DNA of 64,000 nucleotides from a virus (Duplodnaviria; Caudoviricetes): the IMG/VR virus record IMGVR_UViG_2895055527_000002, positions 17,917 through 81,916 of that record, one strand, 5' to 3'. The notes beneath the pieces were generated by a model, which made no database searches, had not been told where the DNA came from, and saw only the letters and a list, made by a program, of their open reading frames with translations. Within the stretch, counting starts at the first letter, position 1; each line of letters opens with the position of its first letter. Positions 1 to 62,952 of the stretch are shown here, piece after piece. The translations under genes were made by a program, and so were the position numbers.

Positions 1-1135
1 CACACACTATCAGCGGTACGGTGTTCGCATAAAAGCGGGTGTATATGAGGAAACGCCGATAGATGGCCAAATTGCCTGTGGGCTTCTTTTCGTTAGCTTG
101 CTGCCCTGGATAGTTGTATGGATGCCTTTTGATATCTGTACGAAAAACGCTGTCAACGGAATGGATAAAACCCAACATTCCATGAAGCTTCGCCGGCGTT
201 CCTTCTTCCTCGAACGTCTGTAGTTTGCCATGCACGTCAGGGACTTGGCGTTTGACTGTGTATTTGCCGTTCTTGACAAGGGACGCCACGTAAGCCCGCA
301 CGAGATACCTATACTCGGTGCTGACGTTTACCTTCTTGTTCACGACGAGTCCCGTGACCTGTTGTCTGGAGTCTCGATATTGCATTCGGGTTTTCTTCTC
401 GTTGATTGAGAAGCCGCTTCGCAAAATCAGTCGCTGGAGTTCTGCTCCGACGTGCCAGCTGTGTTCTTTGGAGTCATCACGATACGCAATCGCCGCGGGA
501 AATACTTCCTTGTTCGTAGAAAACGTGAGGTCGTCGGCGTATCTCGTGTAAGTGCAACCGTGCATCTGGGCTAGCTTGGAAAGGTGCGCATCCAAGATTC
601 CGGCAATCATGTTGGATATGACCGGTGAGCACGGGCTGCCTTGGGGAAGCACCCCATCTCGGCAGGCTATATGGGCGATGGTCGTGGCTACTTTCGCATC
701 AAACGCAAAATATCTATCGTTGATGAGGAATCCTCGGATTCTCTGCCCCGAGATGCTCGGAAAGAAATCCTTGAGGTCAAGATTGAACACGTATCGCCTG
801 TTGCGGTGTGCAGCAGCATTCGTGAGAATGCTTTTTCCCGGACGGAAGCCATGAGAAGCTTTATTAGTTCTCTTGGTCAGCGCGGCAATATCCACGAGAC
901 ATTGTTCCAGCGCAGCAGCAAGTTTGCGTTGTAACGACTTTAACTCGGATGTGGGAGCACAAATATCCCGGCTGCCTCCGCTACTCTTGGGAATCGAAAA
1001 TACGTTATACCTTTCAGGATCTTTCTTGACGTAGAGAAGGTACGTCAGGTCTTGGTGCTTGATGTCAAGAAGCATCGCGAGCTCTGCACGCGATTTGGCG
1101 CCTTGGAACCACTCAAGTGTATTTTTCGGAAGCAT
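1..1135 (-). CDS. Retron reverse transcriptase, Ec67-like RT-TOPRIM fusion (3' part outside window; absent from ORF track)
   Basis: Manual translation from ATG 1135: MLPKNTLEWF...IPKSSGGSRDICAP...SHGF...ILTNAAAH (region X NAxxH)...LDLKDFFPSI...LPQGSPCSPVISN...YTRYADDLTFS...QQVTGLVVN (region Y VTG)...RFYANTVPLIVC. Open to base 1. Confidence 0.95.
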   Translation of the reverse strand, partial: MLPKNTLEWFQGAKSRAELAMLLDIKHQDLTYLLYVKKDPERYNVFSIPKSSGGSRDICAPTSELKSLQRKLAAALEQCLVDIAALTKRTNKASHGFRPGKSILTNAAAHRNRRYVFNLDLKDFFPSISGQRIRGFLINDRYFAFDAKVATTIAHIACRDGVLPQGSPCSPVISNMIAGILDAHLSKLAQMHGCTYTRYADDLTFSTNKEVFPAAIAYRDDSKEHSWHVGAELQRLILRSGFSINEKKTRMQYRDSRQQVTGLVVNKKVNVSTEYRYLVRAYVASLVKNGKYTVKRQVPDVHGKLQTFEEEGTPAKLHGMLGFIHSVDSVFRTDIKRHPYNYPGQQANEKKPTGNLAIYRRFLIYTRFYANTVPLIVC

Positions 1136-1146
1136 TTAGATAGAGA

Positions 1147-1277
1147 GCCCCGTAGACACTCCAACGCGTATTGGCTCCTGCTCCACATGGCGCCAATCAG
1201 GTTGATATCGATGCAGCATAGGTCCTAACATTGTTGTCAAGTGCCATGATTCATGGCAGAAATTCTGTCTACGAGGC
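1147..1277 (-). ncRNA. Retron msr-msd RNA
   Basis: a1/a2 inverted repeat at 1147-1158 and 1266-1277 (11/12 match). Putative branching G at 1265. msr hairpin TGCCAT-GAATC-ATGGCA. msd stem CAAC..ATTGGC..GCCAAT..GTTG. Ends 11 nt before the RT ATG. Confidence 0.88.
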
Positions 1278-1284
1278 GACTCCG

Positions 1285-1293
1285 ATAATATCA
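1285..1293 (-). promoter_or_regulatory. Extended -10 promoter for the retron
   Basis: TGATATTAT (TGn-TATTAT) on the minus strand, 7 nt upstream of a1. Confidence 0.55.
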
Positions 1294-1552
1294 AAGTGCT
1301 CTCCGACTCGACAGCAGCATCTCATCTCTTGCGTTGTGCTGTAGCTGCGGGAGTTGCGTTGGATTTGCTCTTGAGTTAGATTCGCTTCTGCGTCGCAGAA
1401 CGTCGGCGCGCTGCCCACCCCTTGGGGCTTTCCGGCCGCAGTCAAGCTTTCGCATCGTTCCAAATCCAATCTTCAAAATATCTGAACCCGGTCTCCGGGC
1501 GTCAGAGAATTCGGGTGGGCGTCTCTGACGGAACTCTAAGGAGTGACGGAAC

Positions 1553-3205
1553 GTGGACACATCCGATTTTCATTTTCTCGACGCCAAGCACAAGGTAGAG
1601 CGGCAGGCTCGACGTCTTCAAAAGCATCTAAACGTGCGTCTTCGTGTCGCGCGTGCCGTGCTGGCTGAGGGGCCGTACCAATGTAAGAGTTGGGAAAGCC
1701 TTCTCGCGCGACTCGCTTGTCCAACAACACATATCAGAATGTTGGCATCACTACCTGGTGACAACAGGGCCGAGCACTATTTGTCTGCAAATTTGGACGG
1801 CATTGCCCGGTCCATTGCCCAGCAAATAATGCCTAACACCAATCTTGCCGGCCTTTACGACATTGTGAGGAAAATGTTCCTCGCGAATTGTGCCCCGACA
1901 ACGCTTGAGCATGTCGCGCCGTCACTCCCCCCACTTGCGTGGGAGCCTGCGAATCTTGGTCCCGATGCCTACGCGGTGATGTATGCAAATGCGAACGTGA
2001 ACGGCAATGCATTCCGAGTAGTCGCTACGCGAACTTACCTGCCAGATTATCTCGACTTCGGCGCCGAAGTGGACCACCCGGAATTAGCCTATCCGGTTGG
2101 GAAGTTCAAAATTGTCTGGACTAACCCCGACGCGTGGCTGGATGCGGCACGAACTTATCTTTTTGCCCCCAAAGATGAGTGGGATGTCGATCTGGCTCTC
2201 CCGGAAGAAATTCTCGACGAACATATGGCCGCTCATGAGCGGTGGTTCACGAAAGCCCTGGCGACAATGCCTTACCGGGGCGAGTACAGTGAAGAACTCA
2301 ACGAGCGTCCCATTCCATACTTTTACAGGGGGGACGCATACTTGCTCTTTGGCCTCCCCACGGTCGGGGGGGTGAACCGGAAGGCACCTAACCTCGAAGT
2401 AGAAATTTCGGCATCGGATGCCAACGGGGGCAAGCTGTTTTCCGTGGAAGGTGTGCCAATGTTGCTCGAATGGAGTAAAGCGCAAGCCGAATTGGGCGAT
2501 GACATCGGAGAGCATCGATTGGCAAACACGTTTGTTGATGCAATCGCCTCGGACTCAATCAGTATGTGCTTTGATGTGGGGCGCACGGACGTTGGTCCCT
2601 CAATCCTCATGCGACCGGCATGCGGTACCGATATCCGCCTTGCCTTGAAGCTTGAGCTGATGCCAACTGCGGGAGAGGAGGCCTTCGTACTTCGGAGTGA
2701 TTCCCCGGAACTTGCTGAGATACTCGTCGCGAAGATTGCTGCGCGGCAAATACTGGTCGATAGAACGGTTGCCGCTTGTCCCCGTTATGCCGTTGCGTTG
2801 AGGCTTCCGAGAAATGTAAGGGGACTTCTTCAAGTCGGTCTGGAAGTTCGGATGAATAAGGCTGAAGGTGTACGTTCGAATCTCATTCCGACAACATACA
2901 TCGAGGTGATCGATGACGATTGGGCGATGGTCTACTTCCCTCTGGGCATCACTCTTCTGGCGTTACTCGAGGCACTCGGCAAGTGGGCGCTAATAGATGC
3001 TGTCGTTGACGGCAGGGTCATCCGGCGACCAATTGGTTTTGAGGCTAGCCTAGCGAATGAACCAGCTTGGACGAAAAACCTTCTAGACTCAGGCCTGAAT
3101 TTCGACGCAATGTTTTGCGGAGGCAGGAAGATCCCTTTGGGTCGTACCGCCTACGAGTTGCTCCGAACGGCAAGAGTCACTAAGTACGCACGCGACTTCT
3201 ACTGA
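1553..3205 (+). CDS. Hypothetical 550-aa protein with a small N-terminal helical (HTH-like) domain
   Basis: Long ORF with AAGGAG RBS at 1538-1543. No catalytic motif recognised. Confidence 0.8.
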   Translation: MDTSDFHFLDAKHKVERQARRLQKHLNVRLRVARAVLAEGPYQCKSWESLLARLACPTTHIRMLASLPGDNRAEHYLSANLDGIARSIAQQIMPNTNLAGLYDIVRKMFLANCAPTTLEHVAPSLPPLAWEPANLGPDAYAVMYANANVNGNAFRVVATRTYLPDYLDFGAEVDHPELAYPVGKFKIVWTNPDAWLDAARTYLFAPKDEWDVDLALPEEILDEHMAAHERWFTKALATMPYRGEYSEELNERPIPYFYRGDAYLLFGLPTVGGVNRKAPNLEVEISASDANGGKLFSVEGVPMLLEWSKAQAELGDDIGEHRLANTFVDAIASDSISMCFDVGRTDVGPSILMRPACGTDIRLALKLELMPTAGEEAFVLRSDSPELAEILVAKIAARQILVDRTVAACPRYAVALRLPRNVRGLLQVGLEVRMNKAEGVRSNLIPTTYIEVIDDDWAMVYFPLGITLLALLEALGKWALIDAVVDGRVIRRPIGFEASLANEPAWTKNLLDSGLNFDAMFCGGRKIPLGRTAYELLRTARVTKYARDFY

Positions 3206-3219
3206 ACTGAGGGGAGATC

Positions 3220-3414
3220 ATGCCCGAGCGTAAAGTCGCCAAAAATCAACAACGTTACGATGTCCTTGAGAGTGCCTACTGCTCGTTTACGGACGACAGG
3301 GAGAGGCGTAGAGCATTGATCTCGAGAGACATTCGCCTGGTTCTGATGCGTGCGCTTTCGATTTCGGCCTTATGTGTCGCATCCTTCTACGGCAAATCCC
3401 ATTTTCCGTTCTAG
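3220..3414 (+). CDS. Small protein with a hydrophobic C-terminal segment
   Basis: GAGGGGAG RBS, 14 nt after the 550-aa gene. Confidence 0.5.
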   Translation: MPERKVAKNQQRYDVLESAYCSFTDDRERRRALISRDIRLVLMRALSISALCVASFYGKSHFPF

Positions 3415-3751
3415 GGCGTATCGCAGTGAGATGCCCGCTGGGGTTGGCGCTCCGGCGGCCATCGAGCTGCCAAAGGACGTGGCAATGCATCTAGCGCCGG
3501 TCGAACAAACGAGCCCATATCATTTCATTCAGGAGCGGGCAGCCTGACAACGTGACTGTGCGGTGAGTAATCGAAATTCATTGGCCGGTAGGGCGTTCGT
3601 TGTGCCAAGACGATTCGCCAAGCCGAACATCCAGTACCCGTTTCGTGGGTGCCTCGGTAAGCATCCGCTCTATACCTAGGGCAGATGCGGCAGAGTTTCC
3701 GCTAGCGGATGTTTGTTGGTTTGCCACGCGGTAGAACTCTTGATTGTTATG

Positions 3752-4987
3752 TCATCGCCTTTGCCGCCGATGGCGTTCCAAATACATCGAGTAATGCTTG
3801 TCGAGCGCGTCCGCAGCAGGTGCATCTTTGAAGCGCTCCGGCACAACCGCAAGTGACTTTCCATCGTACTTCTCATAGTCGGTCCCTCGGAGTTGTGGCG
3901 CGACATGGACGATACTTCGTGAGTCGATGGACAACAGATGGAGGTCAAACAGTGTATGAATGTCTGCTCTGAGCAGAAGTCCATTATGCACGTTGTAGTC
4001 CGTCAGACGCGAGTGTGGAACGATATGCGCCGCTTCCAGCAGTTCTTCAATCCGTGAACCGGTGACTGCACATCGCGTCCGATACGCGGTCAATAGGGCG
4101 CGCCGGAATTTAACCTGACCACGGCGTGTCTTGATGGCGCGATTCTGGACTTCGTCGTAGGTGCTATCTTCGTCGTCGGCTTGCTCAACGGTATTGTCTT
4201 CGAGCGTCTTTTCAATTCCACGTACGAGCACGCACTCTCCGTTGGAGAAGTCGTAAGAGTGCACATACCACTCCTGGCCATCCAGATAGCGCTTTTCAAC
4301 CTTAGCTGCTTGTTCAGCCCGGTCTTCGCCCTCGGGCCGCCTTCCCGCCCCAACGATCACTCGCACCGGAAGTCGCCGCTCAAAAGACTCTCGGATAGCA
4401 ACGTCCAGTGCTTTTCCACGTTGAGCTTGTGTCTTCGCTCGGTTGCGCACGTTTTTTTCTATCGCAAGGTCGGTGGCGATTCTGGTCCGCTGATCGCTCT
4501 CGGCGCGAGCGTTCCGGTCAAAATAGATCCAACCGTCTTCGTTGACCTTGAATTCGCTATGCCACAGACAAAGAACGAAGCCTTCGGTCACGGACCCGAA
4601 GCACCACTCGTAGCAAAAATTTGGATTCGACTTGAAGTCTTCATTCCAGCCGTCAATCGATACCCCCGCGTCTCGGAGAAGATCGTAAAGTGTGCCTTTC
4701 GATAACGGCTTGAGGCTCTCAAGTGACTCTGTAGGAGGAGCATCCGCGCGTCTAAACGTGACGAGTCGGTTGACTTGGTCAAGCCTCACCTGCCTCCAGC
4801 CGTATTCCATCCAAAATTGACCTGGGTGACCATCCTTAGTCCTTGAATTTGCCCAGAATGGCTTGAACCGATCAGCCGTTGGTGGCAATTCGTTGCCGAT
4901 AATTTTCTCTATATCGGAAAACGAGAGTGTTACTTCACTGTTGGATTGTGCAGCCAAGTGAGCTGCAAGAGGCTGATATTTTCTCAT
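3752..4987 (-). CDS. HNH endonuclease with N-terminal accessory domains (restriction-like)
   Basis: C-terminal RRGQVKFR..CAVTG..LEAAHIVP..NGLLLRADIHTLFD (HNH_2 type). Confidence 0.9.
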   Translation of the reverse strand: MRKYQPLAAHLAAQSNSEVTLSFSDIEKIIGNELPPTADRFKPFWANSRTKDGHPGQFWMEYGWRQVRLDQVNRLVTFRRADAPPTESLESLKPLSKGTLYDLLRDAGVSIDGWNEDFKSNPNFCYEWCFGSVTEGFVLCLWHSEFKVNEDGWIYFDRNARAESDQRTRIATDLAIEKNVRNRAKTQAQRGKALDVAIRESFERRLPVRVIVGAGRRPEGEDRAEQAAKVEKRYLDGQEWYVHSYDFSNGECVLVRGIEKTLEDNTVEQADDEDSTYDEVQNRAIKTRRGQVKFRRALLTAYRTRCAVTGSRIEELLEAAHIVPHSRLTDYNVHNGLLLRADIHTLFDLHLLSIDSRSIVHVAPQLRGTDYEKYDGKSLAVVPERFKDAPAADALDKHYSMYLERHRRQRR

Positions 4988-5264
4988 TAGGTGCCTAGGC
5001 TTTATCGCGAGCCCGTGAAAATATAAGCGATTAAGTCAATGGTTCTGCCGGAAAGAATGATTTTAGGCAGTTCGCAGTTAACGTTGCAGCACATGACTAG
5101 TCGCTTTGGCTGAAGTTTCCGCTGGGCACTTCAAGCCACATGCAACAATTAGCCGTCTGATGCGAAAGACATATCGGGTCGCTATAGGTACTACGGGCGG
5201 GTTCGTTATGGGCGAGGCCCTGTTGAGGGGCCGGCCAAATCTGTTTCGGATACGTTCAGTTTGG

Positions 5265-5597
5265 CTAGTGTGCGTCGTCGTGGCGCGTATTCAGCCCGTA
5301 TATGTCCATCTGTGCGGCAGCACTCCCGTCATTGAACAGAGGAGGCATCTTCGCCTCATGTACTGGCGTTGAACGTTGAGCGTCGTCGTCCAATCTCGTC
5401 ACTGACCGACGCGACTCCACACGACCAAGGAGCACGAATACAAACATCGGAGCCAGAAAGACCACGATAAGTGCCATCAGCACTCGCCAGAGTACGGGAT
5501 GGTCGAGCAGTTCGCGGGCGAACACGAGAAAGACAGTGAACAGGGCAGCCCCTACCAGCACGGATGCCCCCACAAGCATCTTAGCAGTGATTCGCAT
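5265..5597 (-). CDS. Hypothetical membrane protein (2 TM)
   Basis: Two hydrophobic segments. Confidence 0.6.
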   Translation of the reverse strand: MRITAKMLVGASVLVGAALFTVFLVFARELLDHPVLWRVLMALIVVFLAPMFVFVLLGRVESRRSVTRLDDDAQRSTPVHEAKMPPLFNDGSAAAQMDIYGLNTRHDDAH

Positions 5598-5740
5598 AAT
5601 GACTCTGGATAACTATTTATCTATTTATGGCCGCGATTTGCGGCATTCCTTCAAATCCATTATATGGGCGATGTCCGAGCAACGGATAAACTATTACTCC
5701 GGGGTTTGGGCGCGTTCTATTGCGGAGTCGCCATTGCAGT

Positions 5741-6106
5741 CTACGTTTCGTCCCCAAATGCGGCTCCAGCTCGATACTCCGCGGAAACGTCACGTATCGA
5801 CAGAACCGCATTGATATCGCACCATCTGGACCACGTATATGACGCGTCTCCATCCTCACTCGATGGACCCTCAAGTCGGTAAACGCGACCAGACCGCGTC
5901 CTACCTTCGCCTCGCGCAGCATCGAACTCTTGGATGGCCGAGCTCACGCGCCCGGCCATCCCCTCGATTGCCCATCCAACAAAGTGTCGTGTGAGGTCAC
6001 TGGCCTCAAAGACACGCCAACGAACGAGATGGGTGACTGGCTCCGTGTCGACGGAGCGTGTTTTCCACATGGGCATGATGACCTCCTGCGAAACGCGTGA
6101 AAGCAC
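5741..6106 (-). CDS. Hypothetical protein (true start probably about 6079)
   Basis: GRVSSAI..GRTRSGRVYRL pattern; AGGAGG RBS before the internal Met. Confidence 0.65.
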   Translation of the reverse strand: MLSRVSQEVIMPMWKTRSVDTEPVTHLVRWRVFEASDLTRHFVGWAIEGMAGRVSSAIQEFDAARGEGRTRSGRVYRLEGPSSEDGDASYTWSRWCDINAVLSIRDVSAEYRAGAAFGDET

Positions 6107-6302
6107 ACTCGTAGGCTAGGTCAGTTTCCCTCAGATGAAAGCGAGATTTTCGTGTTGCGTCGCCGCGCTGGGCTCTGCGCGCGAGAAAATGCGAGTGGCG
6201 TGCCTATACTGCTGCGAGAGCGACAAAATCCGGGGCGAGAAAACAGGGCTTTGCTCCGTCGCGAAAATTTGCGTTTGTGAATCAAGGTGTTGCCGAAAAT
6301 AG

Positions 6303-6459
6303 TTGCGCCACCTCATGGGTGCGATTCACGGATTTGCGCCAACTTGTGGGTGCGCTTCGGGGTGGTGGGAGATGTGCGAAGTGCGGAAAGTGAGGGCATT
6401 AGGGTACGAGTCCGCCAACTCATGGGTCCGAAACGCGCCAACTTATGGGTAACTCGACA
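6303..6459 (-). repeat. Tn7-like transposon end: terminal TGT plus 4 TnsB-binding boxes
   Basis: Plus-strand copies of CGCCAMCTYRTGGGT at about 6306, 6337, 6413 and 6436, with terminal ...AACTCGACA ending at 6459. Confidence 0.75.
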
Positions 6460-6503
6460 TACGTTTTGATGCTGGCGAAAATCTAGCCGGTTTTTGCCCG
6501 TTT

Positions 6504-6920
6504 TTATTCGAAAATGCCATGAACCGTGCCAGCATTTTCTAATACTCGTTTTTCCAAAAATCGCTTTAGTCTGCGTTCGATCCTGGCGTGTCCGATCGAA
6601 CCTATCAGATGTCGCAGCATTGCGTCGTCGTCAGGCTGAAGCTCCCCTTTAGTGCGCTCATGATTTAGTTCGGGTCGGAAGATCCGAATGCACGCTTCCT
6701 CATATGCTTGAAGATGTAGCAGGTCGGTTGGCACGAACATCACGTCATCGAACTCTTTGACATTGATGTGTTGGCCGAGTCGTTGGTAGATGTCTTCTGT
6801 CTTTCCTACGTACCTTATCCGCTCGCGCAACAGTAGGAAGTAAATTCCTCGCCGGTTTCGCAAAATCGGGATGTGCTTTAGCCCTGCGTCTTCAAGAAAC
6901 TTTTTTTCTTGCATCTTCAA
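6504..6920 (-). CDS. GIY-YIG nuclease family protein
   Basis: GIYFL..RYVGKTE..RLGQH..E..PELN; overlaps the integrase 3' end. Confidence 0.8.
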   Translation of the reverse strand: MKMQEKKFLEDAGLKHIPILRNRRGIYFLLLRERIRYVGKTEDIYQRLGQHINVKEFDDVMFVPTDLLHLQAYEEACIRIFRPELNHERTKGELQPDDDAMLRHLIGSIGHARIERRLKRFLEKRVLENAGTVHGIFE

Positions 6921-8106
6921 TAGCTTGTTGTGAGTGGTTTCCGAACTTCTTCACGGCCTTATTCCCCGCTTCCACGTCCGCTGCCGGCATCCACCGTCCG
7001 TATACTCGCGCGATCATCGTCCAGTCCGCGTGCCCCATCTGCTTTGCAACCCACATCGGGTGTTCGCCCGCCGAAAGCATCATCGAAGCATAGGTGTGCC
7101 GGGTCTGATACGGATTGCGGTAGCGTACGCCAGCCCTTTTGAGAGCGGATTGCCAAATGCGCCAGATCTGATTGGCGCCGGTAAAGCGCGCTCCCGACCG
7201 ATCCTTAAAAATTGCGCCGTCTTCTTCGGACAGGAAGGTCAGTGCCTTTTGCGCATGAAGGGCGGCGCTCGCTGGCTCAAGCAACCGGATGTCGCGCCGA
7301 CCCGCCGCAGTCTTCGGGAATTCGGCGACGCCTTTCGCCTCGCGCGTCATCGCGCGACGTACGCGGACGTATCCTCCAACGAAATCGATGTCCGACCAGT
7401 TGAGAGCGATGAACTCCGAGGTGCGCATCCCGGTCCAGAGCGCAAACTGGATCAGATTTCGATTCCCTCCCGTCAGTTTATCGAGAATAGCGGCTTGCTC
7501 TTGAGGGGAAAGCGGATCGATCTCGTCTTCTTCGATTTCCTTCGGCCGTTCAGCGCGTGCGTAGGTATAACCTGCGAGTGGATTCGCCTCGATTAATTCG
7601 TCTCCTGACGCGTCGCCGAGCGCCGATCGCATGCAGCTTTGGATATTCGCCAGTCGCTTGTTGGAAGCCTTGCGCTCGCGGTCGTGGTCGATTCCGGCGA
7701 GCCAGTCTCTGATAGTCGCGCGCCGGAGATCCGAAAGGGGCAGCTTACCGAATTTCGGGATAACCCAATTGCTCACGATGTTTCGGTATCCCGTGAATGT
7801 TGATGCCTTGATCTCCATCTTCTTCCGGTCTAGCCACTTCTCGAAATACGATTCAACGGTTAGGACGTCACCAGGGCGTTCTGCAAATTTTGCTGCATGC
7901 TTTGAGTCCGGGAACGACTTCACATAGTCAAACTCGCCTTTCTCTATTGCGTGCAGAATCGCGGCCCGGAACTGCGTTATCTTGCGAGTGTTGGCAGGAC
8001 AGGGCTTCGCTTTGATCCGCTCGCGGCACCGCCGCCCTTGGTAATGGAAGGTGATTTCATAGCTGGAGTCTGAAACGATGTCGACTCCTGTCCTCTTTCT
8101 AGCCAT
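6892..8106 (-). CDS. int: Tyrosine integrase with arm-binding domain
   Basis: TGMRTSE, PKT, YQTRHTYAS, MGH, VYG catalytic motifs. Confidence 0.95.
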   Translation of the reverse strand: MARKRTGVDIVSDSSYEITFHYQGRRCRERIKAKPCPANTRKITQFRAAILHAIEKGEFDYVKSFPDSKHAAKFAERPGDVLTVESYFEKWLDRKKMEIKASTFTGYRNIVSNWVIPKFGKLPLSDLRRATIRDWLAGIDHDRERKASNKRLANIQSCMRSALGDASGDELIEANPLAGYTYARAERPKEIEEDEIDPLSPQEQAAILDKLTGGNRNLIQFALWTGMRTSEFIALNWSDIDFVGGYVRVRRAMTREAKGVAEFPKTAAGRRDIRLLEPASAALHAQKALTFLSEEDGAIFKDRSGARFTGANQIWRIWQSALKRAGVRYRNPYQTRHTYASMMLSAGEHPMWVAKQMGHADWTMIARVYGRWMPAADVEAGNKAVKKFGNHSQQAIEDARKKVS

Positions 8107-8267
8107 CGTTCATACCCCTCCATGTCCATTATGATTTTCTTAGTGCCGGGCTCGTACTTCCAGACCGAACCTTCCGGCCAGATGCCCTTGCACTTGCGGG
8201 TATAGACGGCTGCCGGGGTAAATCCGGTCAGCTCGCAGAATTTTGCGATAGTCACAAAACGTACCAT
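7977..8267 (-). CDS. xis: Excisionase
   Basis: Small wHTH-like ORF overlapping the int start, as in lambdoid phages. Confidence 0.75.
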   Translation of the reverse strand: MVRFVTIAKFCELTGFTPAAVYTRKCKGIWPEGSVWKYEPGTKKIIMDMEGYERWLERGQESTSFQTPAMKSPSITKGGGAASGSKRSPVLPTLAR

Positions 8268-8490: not shown

Positions 8491-8895
8491 GTGGAGGAGG
8501 TCGCTATGCCGGACACGCTTCTCGCAGTGGAACTGTTTGAAGACGGTGACCAGACCGGGGTGCGCTACCGGAATGGGGACCCGGACAAACCCGTCGCGAT
8601 CGAGACGTTCGATCGGTTGATCGCCGTTCTAGGGGACTGCCGTGCAGCAATCGAGCCTCCAATAACAGCGGACCCTCCGCCGCCACATCTGAAAATGACG
8701 GCTGCATACGATCCCAGATGGCAGGTTGGGCCTGATCCTATGGGTGGTGGTGCTGTTCTCAAAATTCGTCATCCCGGCTTTGGTTGGCTCGCATTTGCGA
8801 TTCCACTGCCAGAGGTCGAGAACTTCTGTACGGGCCTAGCGAAGATCGCTCAGGCAATGGCAATGGAAGCCCAAGACCACGGGCCAGCCAACTGA
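8491..8895 (+). CDS. Hypothetical moron protein
   Basis: ORF with GGAGG RBS, antisense to the early operon. Confidence 0.65.
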   Translation: MEEVAMPDTLLAVELFEDGDQTGVRYRNGDPDKPVAIETFDRLIAVLGDCRAAIEPPITADPPPPHLKMTAAYDPRWQVGPDPMGGGAVLKIRHPGFGWLAFAIPLPEVENFCTGLAKIAQAMAMEAQDHGPAN

Positions 8896-11792: not shown

Positions 11793-12155
11793 ATGGCGAT
11801 CACCATGCGCAACACCAAGTTCATCGATTGCGGGACGGGTATAAGCGCACCTGCCGATGCAGACCTGGATCTGGATCAAGTTGAGTTCAGTCGAGTGCAG
11901 ACGGCACTGATGATTCGCCCCGGCGAGAAGTCAGAGGCCTTAATGGAATTGTTGGGGAAGCTTCCACCGGGACTTCAAGTCGATGACGTAATTGCCTTAT
12001 TGACGCAGTTGCGTGACGACGGAGTGGACGGAAAGACGGCTGACGCAGGCGAGGTTATCGGGAAGAAGGTGTCTTTGTGGGCAGCGGCCAAGGATATTGC
12101 CCCTGAGGTAACGGCTTACCTAATCAAAACGGCGATCGAATATTTCAAGCTCTGA
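11793..12155 (+). CDS. Hypothetical moron protein
   Basis: AGGAG RBS. Confidence 0.65.
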   Translation: MAITMRNTKFIDCGTGISAPADADLDLDQVEFSRVQTALMIRPGEKSEALMELLGKLPPGLQVDDVIALLTQLRDDGVDGKTADAGEVIGKKVSLWAAAKDIAPEVTAYLIKTAIEYFKL

Positions 12156-15485: not shown

Positions 15486-15687
15486 CCCTGCGCTTCACCC
15501 TCAAGAGAGCAGACCCGAGATCCTGAACAGATCGGGGAAGTGGGATACGGGCTATTTAACGTCGCCGCGCCGACGCGGATCCGCTCACTTGAAGGTACGC
15601 CGTCGTAGAAATTTAGGACTACAGTCGGTAGAATTGGCGCGTCGAAACGCGTGATGCGCGTCTCTCAGAGGTGGCCTCCTGAGACTG

Positions 15688-15957
15688 ATGATGACAGCCG
15701 GTATGTCGTACACGTTTGGCCCCCTTGGGTTCGGGGGGGATTTCGCTGTGAATGAAGTAATCGGTGTGTTGTCTACATTCAAAATGGAGGATATGCGTAT
15801 GGTCAAAGAGGCTTGCTTTGCTAAAGTGAGAGAGTCAAAGACGTTGTCAGCCGCAGAAAGTGCTGTGAGGCGTGTCATCGCGTCTCTGGAGGCCCACCTT
15901 CCTTATAGGCTCAAGCCTACTGACGAGCTCGTGCAATTCGAGCGAAAAGGTATCTGA
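15688..15957 (+). CDS. Hypothetical protein
   Basis: ORF only. Confidence 0.4.
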   Translation: MMTAGMSYTFGPLGFGGDFAVNEVIGVLSTFKMEDMRMVKEACFAKVRESKTLSAAESAVRRVIASLEAHLPYRLKPTDELVQFERKGI

Positions 15958-49872: not shown

Positions 49873-52554
49873 TTACCACGTCCAGCGCAGACCGAGCGTG
49901 GCGGAAACCGACTGCTGGCGCGTTGCGTCAAGCTGGGTCAGGTAGGCGAGCGTTGCATATACGCTCGCTGCTTTGTTGAAGCGACCGGCGACGCCGACGC
50001 CAAACTGGGCGGCGGTGCTATTGGAGTTGGTCACCACCGGGGTATTACCTCCAAACAGAACCCGACCATCGTTTCCGAAGGTGTGGATGAGATTGAATAG
50101 CAGGTAAGGGCGGAGCAGCCCGCGCGCACCGTCGTAGTTCGCTTCCAGCCTCGCGCCGATACGCGCAATCAAACTGTTGACGTTGTTGAACGCTACGCTG
50201 GAAATTCCATCATTGAAATCGTCAATGCTCTGTCTTTGCCAGATGATCTGTGCCTGTGGTTCGAGCGCCAACGTCTCCGACAGGTGAATCGGCCACCCCG
50301 TCTCCAGCGACGCGGCCAGGCCCTTGCCGTTGACGTTCCGATTGAGGCCACTTAGTGGCTTTGCTTGGTACTGCATCGAAGATGCGAGGACTACGGCATC
50401 CGTGTACGCCCCCCCTGGCATGGTGTGGGTCCAATAGAGGCCGGCACTGTACATATCCAACGCCAAGGAGCCTGCGTGAGTATCTGGCATGCCGAGCGCG
50501 AGACCTTGAACGTCACCCGACGCGCGTGTCCACCCACCGAGAATCCCCACGTGGTCGCCATGACCTGACTCGCTGCGACCTGCAAAGACGTCGTGCCCGA
50601 TTTGAATGCCGCCAATGTTGCCGTCGAACTGAGGTGTGACATCACCTTTCGTACGCAACTGCTCGGTCTGTCCCCACACCCGAGCCCAGCCATCGGTCAG
50701 CCAGCCACGCTCGTCAAGCAATCCCTGCTGACCCTGCCGTTCGTGGAATGTGGCCATTTGGGCAAAACCGGCGGTTCTGCCTAGCTCCGGCATCATCGAG
50801 TAGACGGGCACCTCGATCCGATAGATGGGCAGTGGATCTTCGCCCGGCTCCAAGGTGGCGGTCGGCGGTGTGCCGATGCCAGGCGTGGGCGTAAGAATTT
50901 CGACCTCCGGCTCTCCGGTGACTGGATCTGTAACGGTCACCTCAACGGGGGCAGCAACCGTCGAGCGGAGATACCAACTGTTCGTGCTGTCGGCCGTCGT
51001 TCCACCCTTATACAAGTAATAGGTATAGGCGCCGGCACTCACCGACGAGCCGAGCGCGAAGGCTGACGCGGTCGACGTTGCGCCGCCGACGGCCTGCACC
51101 ACCGGAATTCCGTTGCCCGTGGTCAAGTTACCGAGCCCGCCAAGATTATTGACGGCAACCGATGTGTTGCCGTTGATCGTGCCTCCGCTCACGGTTAGAG
51201 GGGCAACACGCGAACTGTCGTTGCCAAGCACAGAGTCAATTTTCAAGGTGCCGTTCTGCCCGGTGTAGTTGCCGACAATGGTCAGCGTGCCATTGCCGCT
51301 GCCGTCCCCCGGATGAACGATGCCCTGGTTCGTGACGTTGCCCGTGAGCGTCCCAGTCCCGGTAAGGGTTGCGCCAGAAGCCACCGTTGTCGTCGCGCCG
51401 CCAAGCGTGCCCGTGAGGTTGAACGTCCCGGTCTGCAACTGGGCGTTGTTGAAGTTGCCGCTACCACTCCATGTCCAATTGTCACCTTGAGCGAGCAGGG
51501 TGCCAAAATTCACGAATGGGTTGCTGGCGGTGCCTGTACCTTGCAGGATTAGGGTACTCACGGCGCTGGTGCCCCCGTCGGCCGTACCGATGATTTGCGA
51601 CCCGGTTTGCAGCGTGAGGGTGTTCGATCGTGCGGCGGGGTTCATCGCGATGGCTGTTCCGGCGTTGCTCTGGATCAGGCCGGCATTTGTGATGGAGATG
51701 AAGCCGTTGACTGACCTAATACCGGTACCTTGCTGGCTGATGATCTGACCTCCGGCCTGATTGACAACGGTCCCGGTAAAGCTTTGCGCCGTGTTCACTA
51801 CCACTGCGTCACTGTTGACACCTTGTGCTTCGACGTAGCCGCTATTGGTGAACGTGATGTTATTGCCCTGCATGTATACGGTGAACGAGCGGCCCGATGC
51901 AGTGCCCCCCGTGGTAATAAGCGATCCGGTGTTGGTAATCGTGCTTTGACCACCGGTGGCGCTTATCGCACGACTGCTAGATCCGGATGCGCTGATTGTT
52001 CCTGTGTTCACGAACGTAGTGAACTGACCGAGGGCAGTAGCCTGCCCCCAGGAGGCCGTCATTCCGTAAGAGTTGGGGCCGGAAAGTGAAATGGTGCCAT
52101 TGTTCGTAAGCGAGCCATTATTGCCATTCAGGGCCATGGCGTCGTTGTTAGCACCGCTCGTCGTGATGGTGCCGGTCGACGTGTTGATGAGTGTGTTTCT
52201 GTCGTTCTGGCCGAGGAGCGCTGCTCCGCGACCTGTCGAGGACGATCCGGAAAGGCTGACACTGCCGGAATTGGAGATGGTGCTGGAAGTGTCGACTGAA
52301 ATGATCGCGAGGTTCGGCGTGCCGCGTACCAAGGATACGGTGCTCCCGGGTGTCACATTCACCGTAACGTTGGTACTTCCGCTTTGTGCTAGGACCGTGC
52401 CACCGGTTCCCGTGCACGTGACCGTCGTGTTGCTTGCCGGATTTGTGTTGTCACATGCCGCGTGGGCAGTGCCAAAGGCACACAGGGAGAGTGCAATAAA
52501 TATCGATCTTAGGGGATCAGAGAACGGACTGCTTAGGCGTTTCGCAGCATTCAT
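49873..52554 (-). CDS. Type Va autotransporter (AIDA-like adhesin)
   Basis: Signal peptide, G/T/N/S-rich beta-helix passenger, Pro-rich linker, beta-barrel ending LRWTW. Confidence 0.93.
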   Translation of the reverse strand: MNAAKRLSSPFSDPLRSIFIALSLCAFGTAHAACDNTNPASNTTVTCTGTGGTVLAQSGSTNVTVNVTPGSTVSLVRGTPNLAIISVDTSSTISNSGSVSLSGSSSTGRGAALLGQNDRNTLINTSTGTITTSGANNDAMALNGNNGSLTNNGTISLSGPNSYGMTASWGQATALGQFTTFVNTGTISASGSSSRAISATGGQSTITNTGSLITTGGTASGRSFTVYMQGNNITFTNSGYVEAQGVNSDAVVVNTAQSFTGTVVNQAGGQIISQQGTGIRSVNGFISITNAGLIQSNAGTAIAMNPAARSNTLTLQTGSQIIGTADGGTSAVSTLILQGTGTASNPFVNFGTLLAQGDNWTWSGSGNFNNAQLQTGTFNLTGTLGGATTTVASGATLTGTGTLTGNVTNQGIVHPGDGSGNGTLTIVGNYTGQNGTLKIDSVLGNDSSRVAPLTVSGGTINGNTSVAVNNLGGLGNLTTGNGIPVVQAVGGATSTASAFALGSSVSAGAYTYYLYKGGTTADSTNSWYLRSTVAAPVEVTVTDPVTGEPEVEILTPTPGIGTPPTATLEPGEDPLPIYRIEVPVYSMMPELGRTAGFAQMATFHERQGQQGLLDERGWLTDGWARVWGQTEQLRTKGDVTPQFDGNIGGIQIGHDVFAGRSESGHGDHVGILGGWTRASGDVQGLALGMPDTHAGSLALDMYSAGLYWTHTMPGGAYTDAVVLASSMQYQAKPLSGLNRNVNGKGLAASLETGWPIHLSETLALEPQAQIIWQRQSIDDFNDGISSVAFNNVNSLIARIGARLEANYDGARGLLRPYLLFNLIHTFGNDGRVLFGGNTPVVTNSNSTAAQFGVGVAGRFNKAASVYATLAYLTQLDATRQQSVSATLGLRWTW

Positions 52555-52773: not shown

Positions 52774-52855
52774 TGCCAGCTTTTTGCCAGCATGCTGGCT
52801 GAGAGGGCCGAGTTACAAGGAATTTGCTGGGGTTCGAGTCCCCTTCCTCGCACCA
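52774..52855 (+). repeat. att-like module copy 2 with tRNA (probably Leu) 3' fragment at 52829-52855
   Basis: TGCCAGC-N4-TGCCAGC, then TGCTGGGGTTCGAGTC-CCCTTCCTCGCACCA. Confidence 0.8.
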
Positions 52856-53044
52856 ACTCCCCGTTTTGGCATCGGTTTTGTAGGTTCTACTTCTTCCCTG
52901 AAATTCGCGCGAAAGACCGTCTGGTAAGGCCCGGCGGGGGCTTTGCGTGAATTCCGATTGTCTTCCCCATCACCCAAAATCTCACCTGTTCACACCTAAA
53001 ATCGGGGTGGCCTCCCCAATTTTTACCCGAGATTTCCCCACGAA

Positions 53045-54049
53045 ATGGCATCCATTCAGAAGGTGGTGAAGGGCTGGCGCGCCCAGTTGATGGTCAACGG
53101 CGAGCGCGACAGCAGGACGTTTGATACAAAGGCAGCCGCGCAGGCGTGGTGTGCGCAGCGGGAGACGGAAATGCGGTCTATTGCTAGCGGGAGTGGCAGT
53201 AAGACGCTAACAGTAGGTGACGTTCTCAAAGAGTACGAGCTGAAGGTGAGTCCCACGAAACGCGGGGCTAGATGGGAGAAGCTTCGATTGCCGCTGATTG
53301 GCAGCAAAGTGGTCAATGGACGGAAGTTCGCTGATATCAGGCTGGCGGAGCTTCGGCCTAGCCATGTGGCGGCTTGGCGAGATGTTCGGATGCGTGAGGT
53401 ATCGGGATCGTCGACTTCACGCGAAATGTCGCTGATGTCGCACGCATTTCAGGTGGCTCGGAAGGAGTGGGGCTGGTTGGTGACAGACCCGATGACCGAA
53501 GTGAAGCGACCACCGGAGCCTCCCGGGCGGGAGCGGTTGATTTCCACGGAAGAGATCGAAACGCTGCTGGCGAGCATGGGATACGAGGAGGGACTGCCGG
53601 TCGAAAAGCCGATGCAGCGAGTCGCCGTTGCATTTCTCTTTGCGATAGAAACCGCCATGCGCTCGAGCGAGATATTGACGCTCACTGTGCAGTCAGTGAA
53701 TTACAAAGGCAAGTTTGCGCGGCTTCCGATGACGAAGAACGGGACGGCCCGGAGCGTACCGTTGTCGTCGAGGGCTATCGATCTGCTGAGGATGCTGCCG
53801 AGCGTACCAAAGGGTGAACCGTTGTTTGCTCTATCGACGTCTAGCCGCGACGCACTGTTCCGGAAGGCGAGGGATCGTGCCGAGATCCCGGACGTGACGT
53901 TCCACGACACGCGCCACGAAGCCATCACCCGCCTAGCGAAGAAGTTGCAGCCTCTGGACCTCGCCAGAATGACGGGCCATAGGAACATCTCAGAACTAAT
54001 GACTTACTACAACGCTACCGCAACAGAGATCGCAGGGCGACTCGGCTAA
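53045..54049 (+). CDS. int: Tyrosine integrase
   Basis: TAMRSSE, TKNG, FHDTRH, TGH, YY. Confidence 0.95.
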   Translation: MASIQKVVKGWRAQLMVNGERDSRTFDTKAAAQAWCAQRETEMRSIASGSGSKTLTVGDVLKEYELKVSPTKRGARWEKLRLPLIGSKVVNGRKFADIRLAELRPSHVAAWRDVRMREVSGSSTSREMSLMSHAFQVARKEWGWLVTDPMTEVKRPPEPPGRERLISTEEIETLLASMGYEEGLPVEKPMQRVAVAFLFAIETAMRSSEILTLTVQSVNYKGKFARLPMTKNGTARSVPLSSRAIDLLRMLPSVPKGEPLFALSTSSRDALFRKARDRAEIPDVTFHDTRHEAITRLAKKLQPLDLARMTGHRNISELMTYYNATATEIAGRLG

Positions 54050-54292
54050 CGCGCGAGGCCCGTCGGTTGGTTGCCGCGCGGTCTCGAGGCAGGGCGTTCG
54101 CATGGGAAGAATCTGTATTTTTTGTATCCGCAAAAAACGAGATCGGCCACTTGGAAATGTCGGTACAATTACCACCGGAAACATTGCTACCCGACATCCA
54201 TGGGGGTATCGCAGTGACAAAATTGACGTGCGCGATCAAATCTTCACCTGTGCGGTGGTGTTCGACCTGGCGGATCAGCATCGTTTGGTAGC

Positions 54293-54550
54293 GTGATTTT
54301 TTTGCGATTTACGGAGGATGCCATTTTGGAAGACTCGGATGGTCGAGAGTCCTTGGGCATGGTTGGCGACATAATCGAGAATCTTCGGATTAGACCGCGC
54401 GGACGCCCCAAGGCTAGTTCCCCGAAAGAGCAGATCAATATTCGGCTTTCGCCTGAAGTTCTCGCTTACTTTCGAGAATCAGGTGCTGGATGGCAGACAC
54501 GAATAGATTTGGCGCTCAAGCAGTTTGTAGAAAGAAATAAACGAGCCTGA
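54293..54550 (+). CDS. BrnA-family antitoxin (orphan)
   Basis: RGRPK..KEQINIRLSPEVLAYFRESGAGWQTRIDLAL. Confidence 0.8.
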   Translation: MIFLRFTEDAILEDSDGRESLGMVGDIIENLRIRPRGRPKASSPKEQINIRLSPEVLAYFRESGAGWQTRIDLALKQFVERNKRA

Positions 54551-54601
54551 CGGCAACCGATGGTCAGTTGTAGTTCCTTGGATTTTTGTTTGCTCAGAAT
54601 T

Positions 54602-55732
54602 ATGCCCACTTATTACGAGTTCTTTGCTGGTGGCGGGATGGCTCGTGCAGGCCTAGGCGATGACTGGACCTGTCTATTTGCCAACGATTTTTCCGAGCAG
54701 AAGGCAAGGTCATACAAGGCTAATTGGGGTGGTGAACACCTTGTTGTCGAAGATATTAATAAGCTGACCGCGGATCAGTTGCCGGGTCAGGCCAATTTGG
54801 CATGGGCCTCTTTTCCTTGCCAAGATTTGTCGTTGGCGGGGAATGGTGCTGGTTTGAACGGCGATCGCTCGGGGACGTTCTGGGGCTTTTGGAATCTCAT
54901 TCAAGAGTTGAATTGGCAGGGAAGAAAGCCGTCGGCCATTGTTCTCGAAAACGTTTATGGCGTTCTAACATCGCATGATGGCAAGGATTTTGACGCAATC
55001 GCGAGATCCATCGCGGCTGAAGGCTATATCTTCGGCGCAATGGTTGTTGACGCAGTTCAGTTTGTTCCTCAATCGCGGCCGCGCGTATTTATCGTTTGCG
55101 TCGACGAGCGACTCACTGTACCTAATGAAGTCGTGTCCAAGCGTGCGCTGCCAAGCTGGTGTCCAGAGAAGCTGATTGGTGCCTACAACGCTTTGCCAAA
55201 GAAGGTTAGAAGTAAATGGCGTTGGTGGAAGATGGCCGAGCCGACGTCAGTATTGAAGACTTTAGACGAAATAATCGATTCAGAACCGTCAGGGGTGAAA
55301 TGGCATAGTCGTGAGGAGACCGACAAGATCCTCGGCATGATGGCACCGACGAATCTTCAGAAGGTCCTGACGGCACAACAGGCCGGTCGAATTCACGTTG
55401 GGACGATTTACAAGCGCACGCGCGGAGGTGTTCAACGTGCCGAAGTCCGGTTCGACGGGATTGCAGGTTGTCTCCGAACTCCCAGTGGTGGATCGAGTCG
55501 CCAGACAATTATGATCGTTGACGGTCCGCTCGTCCGCACTCGCTTGATTAGTGCTCGTGAAGCGGCACGGTTAATGGGGCTGCCGGAAGAGTATGTGTTG
55601 CCTACTAAGTACAACGAAGCGTACCATCTGATTGGTGATGGGGTGGTTGTGCCGGTGGTAGCGCACATTAGCGAAAATGTCCTGCTTCCAATCATGAGTG
55701 CGCAGCCACAGGTCCAACTGAACGTTGCCTAG
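54602..55732 (+). CDS. DNA cytosine-5 methyltransferase
   Basis: FFAGGG, SFPCQDLS, LENV, PQSRPR, REAARLMG, GDGV. Confidence 0.95.
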   Translation: MPTYYEFFAGGGMARAGLGDDWTCLFANDFSEQKARSYKANWGGEHLVVEDINKLTADQLPGQANLAWASFPCQDLSLAGNGAGLNGDRSGTFWGFWNLIQELNWQGRKPSAIVLENVYGVLTSHDGKDFDAIARSIAAEGYIFGAMVVDAVQFVPQSRPRVFIVCVDERLTVPNEVVSKRALPSWCPEKLIGAYNALPKKVRSKWRWWKMAEPTSVLKTLDEIIDSEPSGVKWHSREETDKILGMMAPTNLQKVLTAQQAGRIHVGTIYKRTRGGVQRAEVRFDGIAGCLRTPSGGSSRQTIMIVDGPLVRTRLISAREAARLMGLPEEYVLPTKYNEAYHLIGDGVVVPVVAHISENVLLPIMSAQPQVQLNVA

Positions 55733-55740
55733 GGGCGTGA

Positions 55741-56472
55741 ATGCCAGATTTGCCAGAACAATTAGAAATACTCGACCAACTTCCGATTCCTAACGATGCT
55801 ACCTCTGATCTCCCGTTCGAAACGAGTGAGCTTCGGCGGCTGCTCGATTATTTTCTAACTCGCTCTGTTGTCAATCCGCTAACCGGGGCGGAAACGAAGA
55901 TCGGAAACTTCCAGTGGGGTGTCTATTCTTTCTACGATTACGACGGTGAGCCGATCTACGTTGGTCAAACGAAAGAATCACTACGTGTGCGTATCCGTCG
56001 TCATTTGACGAATCAGCGTACGGACGCTGTCGCAATGAATGTTCTTGACCCGTTTGAAGTGCACAAAATTGTTGTGTACCCTCTGCCAGCGTTGGAAGGG
56101 AAGGCCGCTTCAGACAGCAACGCGAAGCGATATCTTGATGCGCTGGAGCACATGATCTACTCTCGCGCAATTGAGGCATCGAGGTTCGGTGCAATTCTCA
56201 ACGAGAAGGAACCTCCGCAACCGACAGTGGACGTCGAAATCCCCTCGTCTTACGAAGGCGTTATTGTTTCCGATGAGGTGAAGAAGATTCGCGAACATCC
56301 AGATGTTCGCGTGGCACGCAGGACACAGACAATTTCTAGACTGGCTCAAGTGATTAGCGAGCGGAAGGTGCAAAAGGGACTTAGGCGAGTATTGCTCGTG
56401 CAGGCGCAGCGACTGGAGTGGCTTGCCCGCCGAAGGCTTGAAAGTGCGACCGATGTTGGTGGCGAGGATTGA
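55741..56472 (+). CDS. GIY-YIG nuclease, putative restriction endonuclease
   Basis: GVYSFY..IYVGQT..RIRRH..LE..LNE; 8 nt after the methyltransferase. Confidence 0.8.
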   Translation: MPDLPEQLEILDQLPIPNDATSDLPFETSELRRLLDYFLTRSVVNPLTGAETKIGNFQWGVYSFYDYDGEPIYVGQTKESLRVRIRRHLTNQRTDAVAMNVLDPFEVHKIVVYPLPALEGKAASDSNAKRYLDALEHMIYSRAIEASRFGAILNEKEPPQPTVDVEIPSSYEGVIVSDEVKKIREHPDVRVARRTQTISRLAQVISERKVQKGLRRVLLVQAQRLEWLARRRLESATDVGGED

Positions 56473-56482
56473 TTGTAAAGGG

Positions 56483-56502
56483 AGCCCCGCAAAGCGGGGC
56501 TT
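56483..56502. terminator. Hairpin between convergent genes
   Basis: AGCCCCGC-AAA-GCGGGGCT. Confidence 0.6.
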
Positions 56503-56523
56503 CGTCGCATTTCGTATCGTTGA

Positions 56524-56931
56524 TCACTTGTCGGGAGTGAGAATCGGAGGCACCTTTTTGTTAGCATCCCTTGCCTGCGCGCGGCGGATGTTTTGATGAG
56601 ACTCTGTCCAACGAATGACCTCGATTGCTTTCCAAAGGGGTTGCCCCGTTGCATTGCGTTGGGGGCGGCTCTCATCTGCTTTTGCTTTCGATCTAGTGGA
56701 TGGTAGCCGGATTGGGGCAGGAAAATCAGAAAGCGTAACGACTCGTTCAAGAACCACTGCCGGTGAGCGTTGCAAGTAAGTTCCGATTGCCTTAGCGTTC
56801 CACAGCTGGATCGAAAGCGGCAACGGGGCTGCGATACGCTCTGCAATTGCCTTCGCTAGCTGATCCACGAGGTACAGTGCTTGCGCATCGGCGTCGTTCG
56901 GCGTTGAATCTAAATCTACTTTGTTCCCCAT
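56524..56931 (-). CDS. AlpA/excisionase-like DNA-binding protein
   Basis: LWNAKAIG..FPAPIRL..LWKAIEVIRW. Confidence 0.7.
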   Translation of the reverse strand: MGNKVDLDSTPNDADAQALYLVDQLAKAIAERIAAPLPLSIQLWNAKAIGTYLQRSPAVVLERVVTLSDFPAPIRLPSTRSKAKADESRPQRNATGQPLWKAIEVIRWTESHQNIRRAQARDANKKVPPILTPDK

Positions 56932-56932
56932 T

Positions 56933-57718: not shown

Positions 57719-57932
57719 CTCCGGTTATGTATGAGAGCGTAGTCCTTGCCTCGACGGGTAACCCCGTCGGGGCTTTTTTTCTACCGTCGATCAAAGTGTT
57801 CCTGTCCTGGCAAAGCGGGGGGCGGTTTGGTACCTGTTTCCTTGATCGCGTACGTTAAGTGTTATTGATATAAATATAGGGGCGCGCTTCGCGCGCCCCG
57901 CCGTCCTCGGCCCTCCGGGCGGCGGGGCGTGC

Positions 57933-60613: not shown

Positions 60614-60616
60614 GAA

Positions 60617-60916: not shown

Positions 60917-60923
60917 GATGACC

Positions 60924-62492: not shown

Positions 62493-62494
62493 CG

Positions 62495-62581
62495 TTATCC
62501 TCGGAAGCCTTGAATTACCGCCCAGGCGCAAACCATTCCCCACACGAAGAAGGTCAAATTCCAGAGATCTTGGATTGGCAT
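62495..62581 (-). CDS. 28-aa hydrophobic minor virion protein (below ORF-track cutoff)
   Basis: MPIQDLWNLTFFVWGMVCAWAVIQGFRG; GGGGAG RBS; stop 2 nt before the pIII ATG. Confidence 0.7.
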   Translation of the reverse strand: MPIQDLWNLTFFVWGMVCAWAVIQGFRG

Positions 62582-62905: not shown

Positions 62906-62952
62906 GGGTATTTCCTCCAGTTGATACGCCGGGGAGCGCCCGACACGCTTGG

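Follow-up and report, generated by a model that had tools for sequence, protein, structure and literature searches.

Tn7 is bounded by TGT termini, carries repeated transposase sites that are arranged asymmetrically at its two ends, and generates a 5-bp target duplication on insertion. Temperate phages with lambda-type, arm-binding integrases depend on a different arrangement of sites, in that excision needs arm sites near the core on attL. Among Tn7-like elements, the available portion of Hsieh & Peters (2022, PMC9881144) describes a clade with fused TnsAB proteins that inserts 29 ± 1 bp after tRNA-Leu and whose target-proximal (left) end has binding sites in both orientations. This clade includes the type I-B2 PmcCAST and the type I-D McCAST and CyCAST. 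The accessible text of Faure et al. (2023, PMC10293859) gives a CyCAST homing position 30-33 nt downstream of tRNA-Leu and mentions a PmcCAST tRNA-Val target plasmid. The ‘grounding’ of prophages through defects in att sites or recombinases is described in the available section of Ramisetty & Sudhakari (2019).

The window, by which we mean the whole 64,000-nucleotide stretch of DNA analysed here, corresponds to C1:227934-291933 of a 5.85-Mb genome. We consider it very likely that a CRISPR-less Tn7-like transposon, belonging to the clade with fused TnsAB and tRNA homing, has inserted in the attL of a prophage and that window 6306-6459 is its right end. This assessment applies to the explanation as a whole, with insertion into attL after lysogeny and a probable grounding of the prophage included. 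The transposon is an additional member of an already published clade.

Termini, core proteins and cargo of the transposon

The first-pass annotation had proposed a Tn7-like end with repeated boxes on the minus strand of the window, with TACGT as a candidate target duplication, and both parts of this proposal are borne out. Read on the minus strand, the terminus is TGTCGAGTT, followed by four 15-bp boxes that fit ACCCAYRAGKTGGCG (window 6436-6450, 6413-6427, 6337-6351 and 6306-6320). A PWM scan places these boxes, all in direct orientation, at offsets 10-24, 33-47, 109-123 and 140-154 from the terminus. The pattern has four matches in the window against 0.00 expected, and a count of four was reached in none of 100 shuffles; chance repetition was considered and rejected as an explanation. 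The PWM built from them finds a single comparable match in the 62.5-kb interior of the element. Across the genome, a scan allowing up to two mismatches returned 20 matches, of which six are at the two element ends (those of the left end at C1:170656-170690) and the other 14 are solitary, with two mismatches each.

The final 24 nt of the element, TGTCGAGTTACCCATAAGTTGGCG (window 6436-6459, minus strand), occur exactly twice in the genome, once forward (C1:170647-170670, plus strand) and once in reverse (C1:234369-234392, minus strand). Because the inverted identical copy at C1:170647 is preceded by TACGT, we place the bounds of the transposon at C1:170647-234392 (63,746 bp), between two copies of a 5-bp target-site duplication (C1:170642-170646 on the left and window 6460-6464, plus strand, on the right). 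The termini have the form TGT...ACA and sit within the terminal inverted repeats. The last base of the transposon is window 6459, and the window holds its right-hand 6.46 kb (window 1-6459); the tns genes and the left end are ~52-57 kb before the window start (C1:227934). The G+C content of the element is 54.8%, compared with 62.5% for the genome. An intact tRNA-Leu(TAG) gene lies at C1:170531-170617, separated from the TACGT duplication by 24 bp, and the element starts 29-30 nt past the tRNA end. A second TGT end preceded by TACGT and an intact tRNA with a predicted ending were both to be sought leftwards according to the first-pass annotation; their discovery, with the partner end 24 bp plus TACGT downstream of tRNA-Leu(TAG), upholds its suggestion that the element targeted the same tRNA locus as the prophage. 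The left end has just two boxes, one direct and one inverted, at offsets 10-24 and 30-44. Since the inverted-box end is the tRNA-proximal (left) end in the published nomenclature, the window holds the right end. We read the boxes as putative binding sites for the TnsAB transposase, distributed asymmetrically between the ends.

Inside the left end are three tns genes on the minus strand, all pointing at the terminus, so that the tnsABC and tniQ genes expected leftwards are present as a fused tnsAB, tnsC and tnsD/tniQ. TnsAB (945 aa) has rve and Mu-transpos_C domains (Pfam), TnsC (397 aa) has AAA_22 and TniB, and TnsD (441 aa) has TniQ and HTH_3. The top solved relative of TnsAB is 9bw1_M (E 8.1e-78, query residues 52-849); 9BW1 is cited as the PmcCAST TnsAB/TnsABC cryo-EM structure in the available part of a 2026 preprint. 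Against solved structures, TnsC matches 8fcu_Q (3e-22) and TnsD matches 8v32_J (8e-22), and the 9BW1 entry also contains TnsC and TnsD chains that are matched by these two proteins (3e-22 and 8e-22, respectively). TnsB of Tn6677, whose boxes the first-pass annotation had likened to those seen here, is related to the protein only distantly (E 1.1e-12, compared with 8.1e-78 for PmcCAST TnsAB). The N-terminal residues 52-265 align to residues 15-221 of PmcCAST TnsAB (E 1.3e-9) with D...ExK conserved, and we read the 945-aa protein as a fused TnsAB with predicted nuclease activity. Pfam TnsA models gave no match to this N-terminus at E≤0.1. A genome-wide search with PF08722 (TnsA_N) also gave no match, a silence that is uninformative because 14 control genomes were equally silent. 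NCBIfam assigned no names to the six core-region proteins apart from weak matches to IS481/IS3 transposases. Between tnsAB and the iron-uptake cargo (L001:10157-13931) are several family-less ORFs and a DUF6471 protein; these may belong to the transposition module because they lie within the 9.4 kb that are shared at 97% with a sister element described below.

The core proteins are most like those of the type I-B2 PmcCAST, a resemblance that would suit a CRISPR-associated transposon (CAST) guided to its site by RNA. The cas genes that the first-pass annotation had listed as possible companions of the tns genes failed to appear, however, with no Cas protein among 56 cargo ORFs searched with Pfam or 36 searched with PADLOC. 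Pfam likewise found no second TniQ in the 56 cargo ORFs, the right-hand 14.4 kb of the element contain no direct-repeat family that could form a repeat array, and no Rfam CRISPR family was detected across the element. With Cascade genes, a second small TniQ and a CRISPR array all missing from the searches run, CAST identity was rejected, and we give RNA guidance to this site next to no credence. The CRISPR-less Tn7-like transposon is the reading used below.

The transposon carries 54 kb of cargo, which shows the carrying capacity of such elements and includes an iron-uptake module and a fluoride-response island as well as Hachiman, Thoeris ThsB and a retron. The part of the cargo inside the window includes a retron type I-C RT-Toprim reverse transcriptase (window 2-1135, minus strand; RVT_1 8e-24 in Pfam, RT-Toprim_I-C 6e-202 in PADLOC). 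The full protein has 601 aa (gene L004:7263-9068), of which 378 aa are within the window. The msr/msd RNA would be expected at about window 1136-1550, where Rfam has no match; no Rfam family was found in window 1-8200. An HNH_2 plus DUF7662 protein of 411 aa is encoded at window 3752-4987 (minus strand). Thoeris ThsB (L003:14402-15385, minus strand; PADLOC 5e-120) is near the right end, and PADLOC recognised no ThsA beside it. HamA and HamB of Hachiman, likewise near the right end, are at L003:18647-19486 and L004:1477-3594 (both plus strand; PADLOC 1.5e-114 and 1.7e-235), and the iron-uptake cargo consists of an ECF sigma factor, FecR and a TonB-dependent receptor.

The fluoride-response island is transposon-borne and has an unusual density of riboswitches, with ten distinct fluoride aptamers (RF01734; 48.6-57.3 bits, cut-off 34) in ~22 kb (C1:184756-207026). 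They are at L001:18756-18820, at L002:5030-5090, 6676-6739, 8642-8702, 8782-8847, 11972-12036, 15633-15695 and 15762-15826, and at L003:4447-4509 and 4961-5026. The genes downstream of them encode CLC, CrcB, enolase, a pyrophosphatase/DUF190, a Na+/H+ exchanger and a CMAS-type methyltransferase, together with a 461-aa unknown protein, a MutS_V pair, a dynamin-like protein and a second DUF190.

Relatives and insertion at a fixed distance from tRNA genes

Of the 105 stretches matched in a pattern-based scan of one genome per species, three encode a relative. TnsAB of the first, in Pandoraea aquatica LMG 31011 (G001; L005), is 99% identical, and those of the other two, in Paraburkholderia (L006 and L007), are 32-33% identical. 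All three have an opposite-strand tRNA ~2.6-3 kb downstream of tnsAB, namely tRNA-Leu(TAG), tRNA-SeC and tRNA-Ala(GGC). Nine of 401 genomes sampled from the order, our own included, encode a homologue (E≤1e-40). Five full-length order-level homologues are followed by tmRNA (two), by tRNA-Ser(TGA) (two) or by the end of the contig (G335). The particular 24-nt terminus of our element is present in 2 of 38 genomes of the genus.

The position of the left end is shared throughout this set. Each of the seven evaluable relatives has a tRNA or tmRNA on the opposite strand and, 26-34 nt beyond its end, a TGT terminus, and these seven ends and our own left end all have a box, 3-5 nt and an inverted box. 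The G001 element starts 30 nt past tRNA-Leu(TAG), as ours does, and the six other relatives start at +26 to +34 past tRNA-SeC, tRNA-Ala, tmRNA (two) and tRNA-Ser (two). The two tmRNA-associated elements (L036 in G376 and L037 in G276) start 30 nt past tmRNA (ssrA) and have perfect or near-perfect palindromic box pairs.

Similarity between the G001 sister element (~39.2 kb) and ours is confined to the 9.4-kb tns module (97%), the last 0.7 kb (89%) and a single piece of 446 bp. The sister is flanked by a GTAGG duplication and follows the same tRNA type after a 24-bp spacer, and both this spacer and its distal flank are DNA different from the flanks of our element. The 24-bp spacer plus GTAGG is present in our window at 52856-52884 (plus strand), where the position used by the sister transposon is unoccupied. 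The G001-type context is also reproduced in contigs of a public run, X4. Because the two insertions have the same offset in unrelated local sequence and different duplications (TACGT and GTAGG), they are independent events. The locus is thus a natural experiment on target choice, in which a near-identical module has used the same offset from tRNA-Leu(TAG) in two unrelated downstream sequences, and this argues that the tRNA gene is recognised and not the insertion point. These comparisons support, without proving, recognition of the tRNA gene by TnsD and insertion at a fixed distance whatever the local sequence. By homology to the PmcCAST proteins and by analogy with published assays on relatives, TnsD would bind the tRNA gene and then recruit TnsC, and TnsAB would cut and paste the element at a fixed distance downstream, left end first, regardless of the DNA there.

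Partner ends of the distant relatives were located in four of six genomes searched, with duplications of TGAAG (G439), AGGCG (G438) and ACTAG (G336); those of the tmRNA-associated elements in G376 and G276 were not found at up to three mismatches. Three of the right ends are followed by an opposite-facing terminus within 4-10 bp (G336:C6:72951-73003 in L051; G255:C18:529306-529357 in L054; G438:C171:34486-34543 in L044). Judged from their arrangement, these back-to-back Tn7-like termini indicate that related elements are arrayed in tandem at tRNA-Ser and tRNA-SeC sites, and distant relatives would thus have inserted even against the end of another copy. The back-to-back terminus in G336 has the same ACTAG, as expected after a second insertion at the same position. 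Tn7 shows target immunity, with which the shared ACTAG target in G336 seems to be at odds.

The split attL and the fate of the prophage

To the right of the transposon is a lambda-like prophage of ~46.4 kb (window 6460-52855, plus the 24 bp to the left of the transposon) whose gene set appears complete. PHROGs matches in window 6460-52855 include an integrase, a repressor and Cro-like and CII-like regulators; an O-like replication protein and an HNH endonuclease; small and large terminase, portal, protease and major head protein; and adaptors, a lambda-type tail set with tape measure and J, holin and endolysin. Among catalogued phages the closest are Burkholderia phages of ~44 kb, which resemble it at 75% identity over the head module only. 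An 893-aa autotransporter (window 49873-52554, minus strand; beta-domain 1.3e-42, AC_1) lies between the lysis genes and attR and is like a moron in position.

The attachment sites are of the lambda type, with a core at both junctions, flanking arm-type repeats and an integrase that has an arm-binding domain. The attR core (window 52829-52855, plus strand) is an exact 27-bp repeat of the tRNA-Leu 3′ end, which matches once in the window and in none of 100 shuffles. The tyrosine integrase gene (window 6892-8106, minus strand) encodes an N-terminal Arm-DNA-bind_2 domain (3.1e-19) followed by Phage_integrase (5.8e-19; phrog_1 2.5e-64). Just outside the transposon end, the displaced attL arm (window 6465-6560, plus strand) has the repeats ATGCTGGC at 6469-6476 and GCCAGCAT at 6528-6535. 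Beside attR is a cluster of arm-type repeats (window 52774-52799), made up of TGCCAGC at 52774-52780, GCCAGCAT at 52786-52793 and its inverse at 52792-52799. The observation in the first-pass annotation of an inverse arm motif outside the transposon end, matching one at the right end of the prophage, therefore stands. The GCCAGCAT/ATGCTGGC motif occurs 10 times in the window against 2.67 expected, a count reached in none of 100 shuffles, and the four copies at 6469-6476, 6528-6535, 52786-52793 and 52792-52799 are within ~80 bp of the att cores. Repeats of the GCCAGCAT type are also conserved across five related attL arms, and this repetition and conservation define them as candidate arm sites for Int.

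We searched 41 genomes (our own and relatives) with window 6459-8200 and obtained matches in 11, our own included, in several of which the ~75 bp immediately right of the transposon are conserved beside int genes. In two of the five related loci examined, both in genus-mates (G017 and G007), the homologous arm comes directly after an intact tRNA-Leu(TAG); in the other three, the same arm comes after a tRNA 3′ fragment. Our own 24-bp left flank, one TACGT and the right flank align without gaps to the uninterrupted attL of G017 and G007. Because the flanks are colinear with an uninterrupted attL and the core is repeated at attR, the prophage integrated first and the transposon later inserted into its attL, separating core from arm as the first-pass annotation had supposed.

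Two further features of this region are specific to our locus or variable among relatives. A GIY-YIG ORF of 138 aa (window 6504-6920, minus strand) lies between the attL arm and int, in a stretch that has no matching DNA in the attL-int regions of the relatives. One of the two direct arm repeats (6516-6527) reads TGCCATGAA; its counterpart is TGCCAGC in four of the five related attL arms and TGGCAGC in the remaining one. The TGCCATGAA change, or the GIY-YIG ORF, could reflect decay after grounding or just lineage variation. No excisionase was recognised near int, where four small ORFs gave no Pfam match at E≤0.1 save for one spurious sub-threshold match.

The opposite history, in which the transposon arrived before the prophage or recombination between arrays brought the two together, so that no attL was interrupted, draws on the sister element in G001, which adjoins the same tRNA without this prophage. 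Yet a prophage integrating later at the tRNA core would lie between the tRNA and the transposon, an arrangement that is not seen. The 24 bp on the left and the sequence on the right match one continuous attL in G017 and G007, the duplications of the two elements differ (TACGT and GTAGG), and the G001-type target after attR is unoccupied here. The transposon-first order was accordingly rejected, contradicted both by the continuity of attL in G017 and G007 and by the duplication in G001, and we regard it as very improbable.

Insertion of the transposon into an existing attL has a possible consequence for the prophage. The fixed insertion distance places the element just past the core, which is in the tRNA 3′ end, and short of the arm-type repeats. 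The transposon sits between the attL core and all the attL arm repeats and, with the insertion point between them, the arm and int have been moved 63.7 kb from the core. An arm-binding integrase would then no longer assemble an excisive complex on attL, and the arm-binding domain of Int makes trapping plausible. From this geometry we think that the prophage is probably grounded. The alternative is that it is not trapped, with the insertion having no effect on induction, either because the 27-bp cores still recombine to give a ~110-kb circle that includes the transposon or because other arm sites serve. Both cores are intact, the gene set looks complete and the arm sites on the attR side are untouched, all of which would allow for continued mobility. 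Int does carry an arm-binding domain, however, and a 110-kb circle would not be packageable because the catalogued relatives are about 44 kb; continued mobility is hence a real but lesser prospect. The intact appearance of all the prophage genes fits a recent insertion and equally fits continued mobility. Matching contigs in assembled public runs (Logan; four of seven inspected) have no bearing on excision; one of these runs, X1, is probably the source assembly. Short contigs identical to the int region 6520-7200 are present in X2 and X3, both 2025 seawater metagenomes; none of them extends across the transposon junction at 6459, and they have no bearing on whether the transposon is present in those samples. 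We continue with the reading that the prophage is probably grounded.

Generality of the collision and comparison with known systems

The DNA beyond the prophage attR belongs to a second integrative element (window 53045-63142 and beyond), with an integrase (window 53045-54049, plus strand), a C5 methylase, a GIY-YIG protein, a G2P-type replication protein, a secretin and a Zot-type assembly ATPase. Its gene content suggests a filamentous prophage, and its attR may be a 17-bp repeat of the tRNA end that lies 18.9 kb downstream (C1:299652-299668). A single tRNA-Leu thus carries a stack of at least three mobile elements.

The right end of the G001 sister is followed ~164 bp on by an integrase that is 86% identical to that at window 53045-54049. 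As read from these junctions, both independent insertions split the attL of an integrase element, and the two elements split are unrelated. The six elements with both ends resolved have right flanks of three kinds: an integrase in two (our own and G001), a Tn7-like terminus in three (G438, G336 and G255) and housekeeping genes, namely an AsnC-type regulator and a PLP enzyme, in one (G439). Integrase adjacency is thus not general among the six, and the landing context depends on the prior occupant of the tRNA. Grounding is likely, given the geometry, to be a by-product wherever an integrase element is resident, and we see no sign of selection for it.

A broader possibility is that tRNA-homing Tn7-like transposons act as prophage locks, each homing event grounding the resident prophage or island while leaving the tRNA intact. 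Homing would have this effect because a point ~25-29 bp past the tRNA falls between core and arm sites. We advance this generalization tentatively and think it doubtful as a rule. Were it general, mobile elements would be in systematic conflict at tRNA hot spots, and prophages would have a route to domestication; the element described here also carries anti-phage cargo. What this locus offers is a concrete and testable case of one mobile element disabling the cis-acting site of another without deletion. Transposons of this type have been described before, and the attL collision is a neat case of mobile-element interference but a modest curiosity. Our literature search, over sources available in part, returned no example of a Tn7-like transposon in an attL, which does not prove that none has been published. 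The surveys of Hsieh & Peters (2022) and Faure et al. (2023), which cover hundreds of Tn7-like elements and of which only portions were available, may already include proteobacterial members.

The element resembles the fused-TnsAB, tRNA-homing clade in its place beside a tRNA, its start 30 nt past the tRNA end, its 5-bp duplication and, going by the available portion of the clade description, its left end with a box and an inverted box. It differs from the fused-TnsAB CASTs in having neither a CRISPR-Cas module nor a second TniQ, and from the clade in that its host is not a cyanobacterium and its cargo amounts to 54 kb. The matches of TnsAB, TnsC and TnsD to PmcCAST reach just E 8e-78, 3e-22 and 8e-22, and the termini are TGT/ACA, whereas those of McCAST are given as TAC/GTA in the accessible text. 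With Tn7 and its glmS attTn7 site, the element shares insertion at a selector-set fixed distance downstream of a conserved gene that is left undamaged, as well as TGT termini, a 5-bp duplication and asymmetric repeated sites. It departs from Tn7 (TnsABCDE) in its fusion of TnsA to TnsB, its lack of TnsE and its use of a tRNA gene as target; its tns operon points to the target-proximal end, whereas that of Tn7 points away from it, and one site is inverted. With the grounded prophages of Ramisetty & Sudhakari (2019), this prophage has in common a proposed irreversible lysogeny through cis-acting damage to att. The causes named in the available section of that paper are defective recombinases, recombination with related phages and resected att sites, whereas in the present case the cores and arm are intact and have been separated by a site-specific transposon, with grounding as the proposed outcome.
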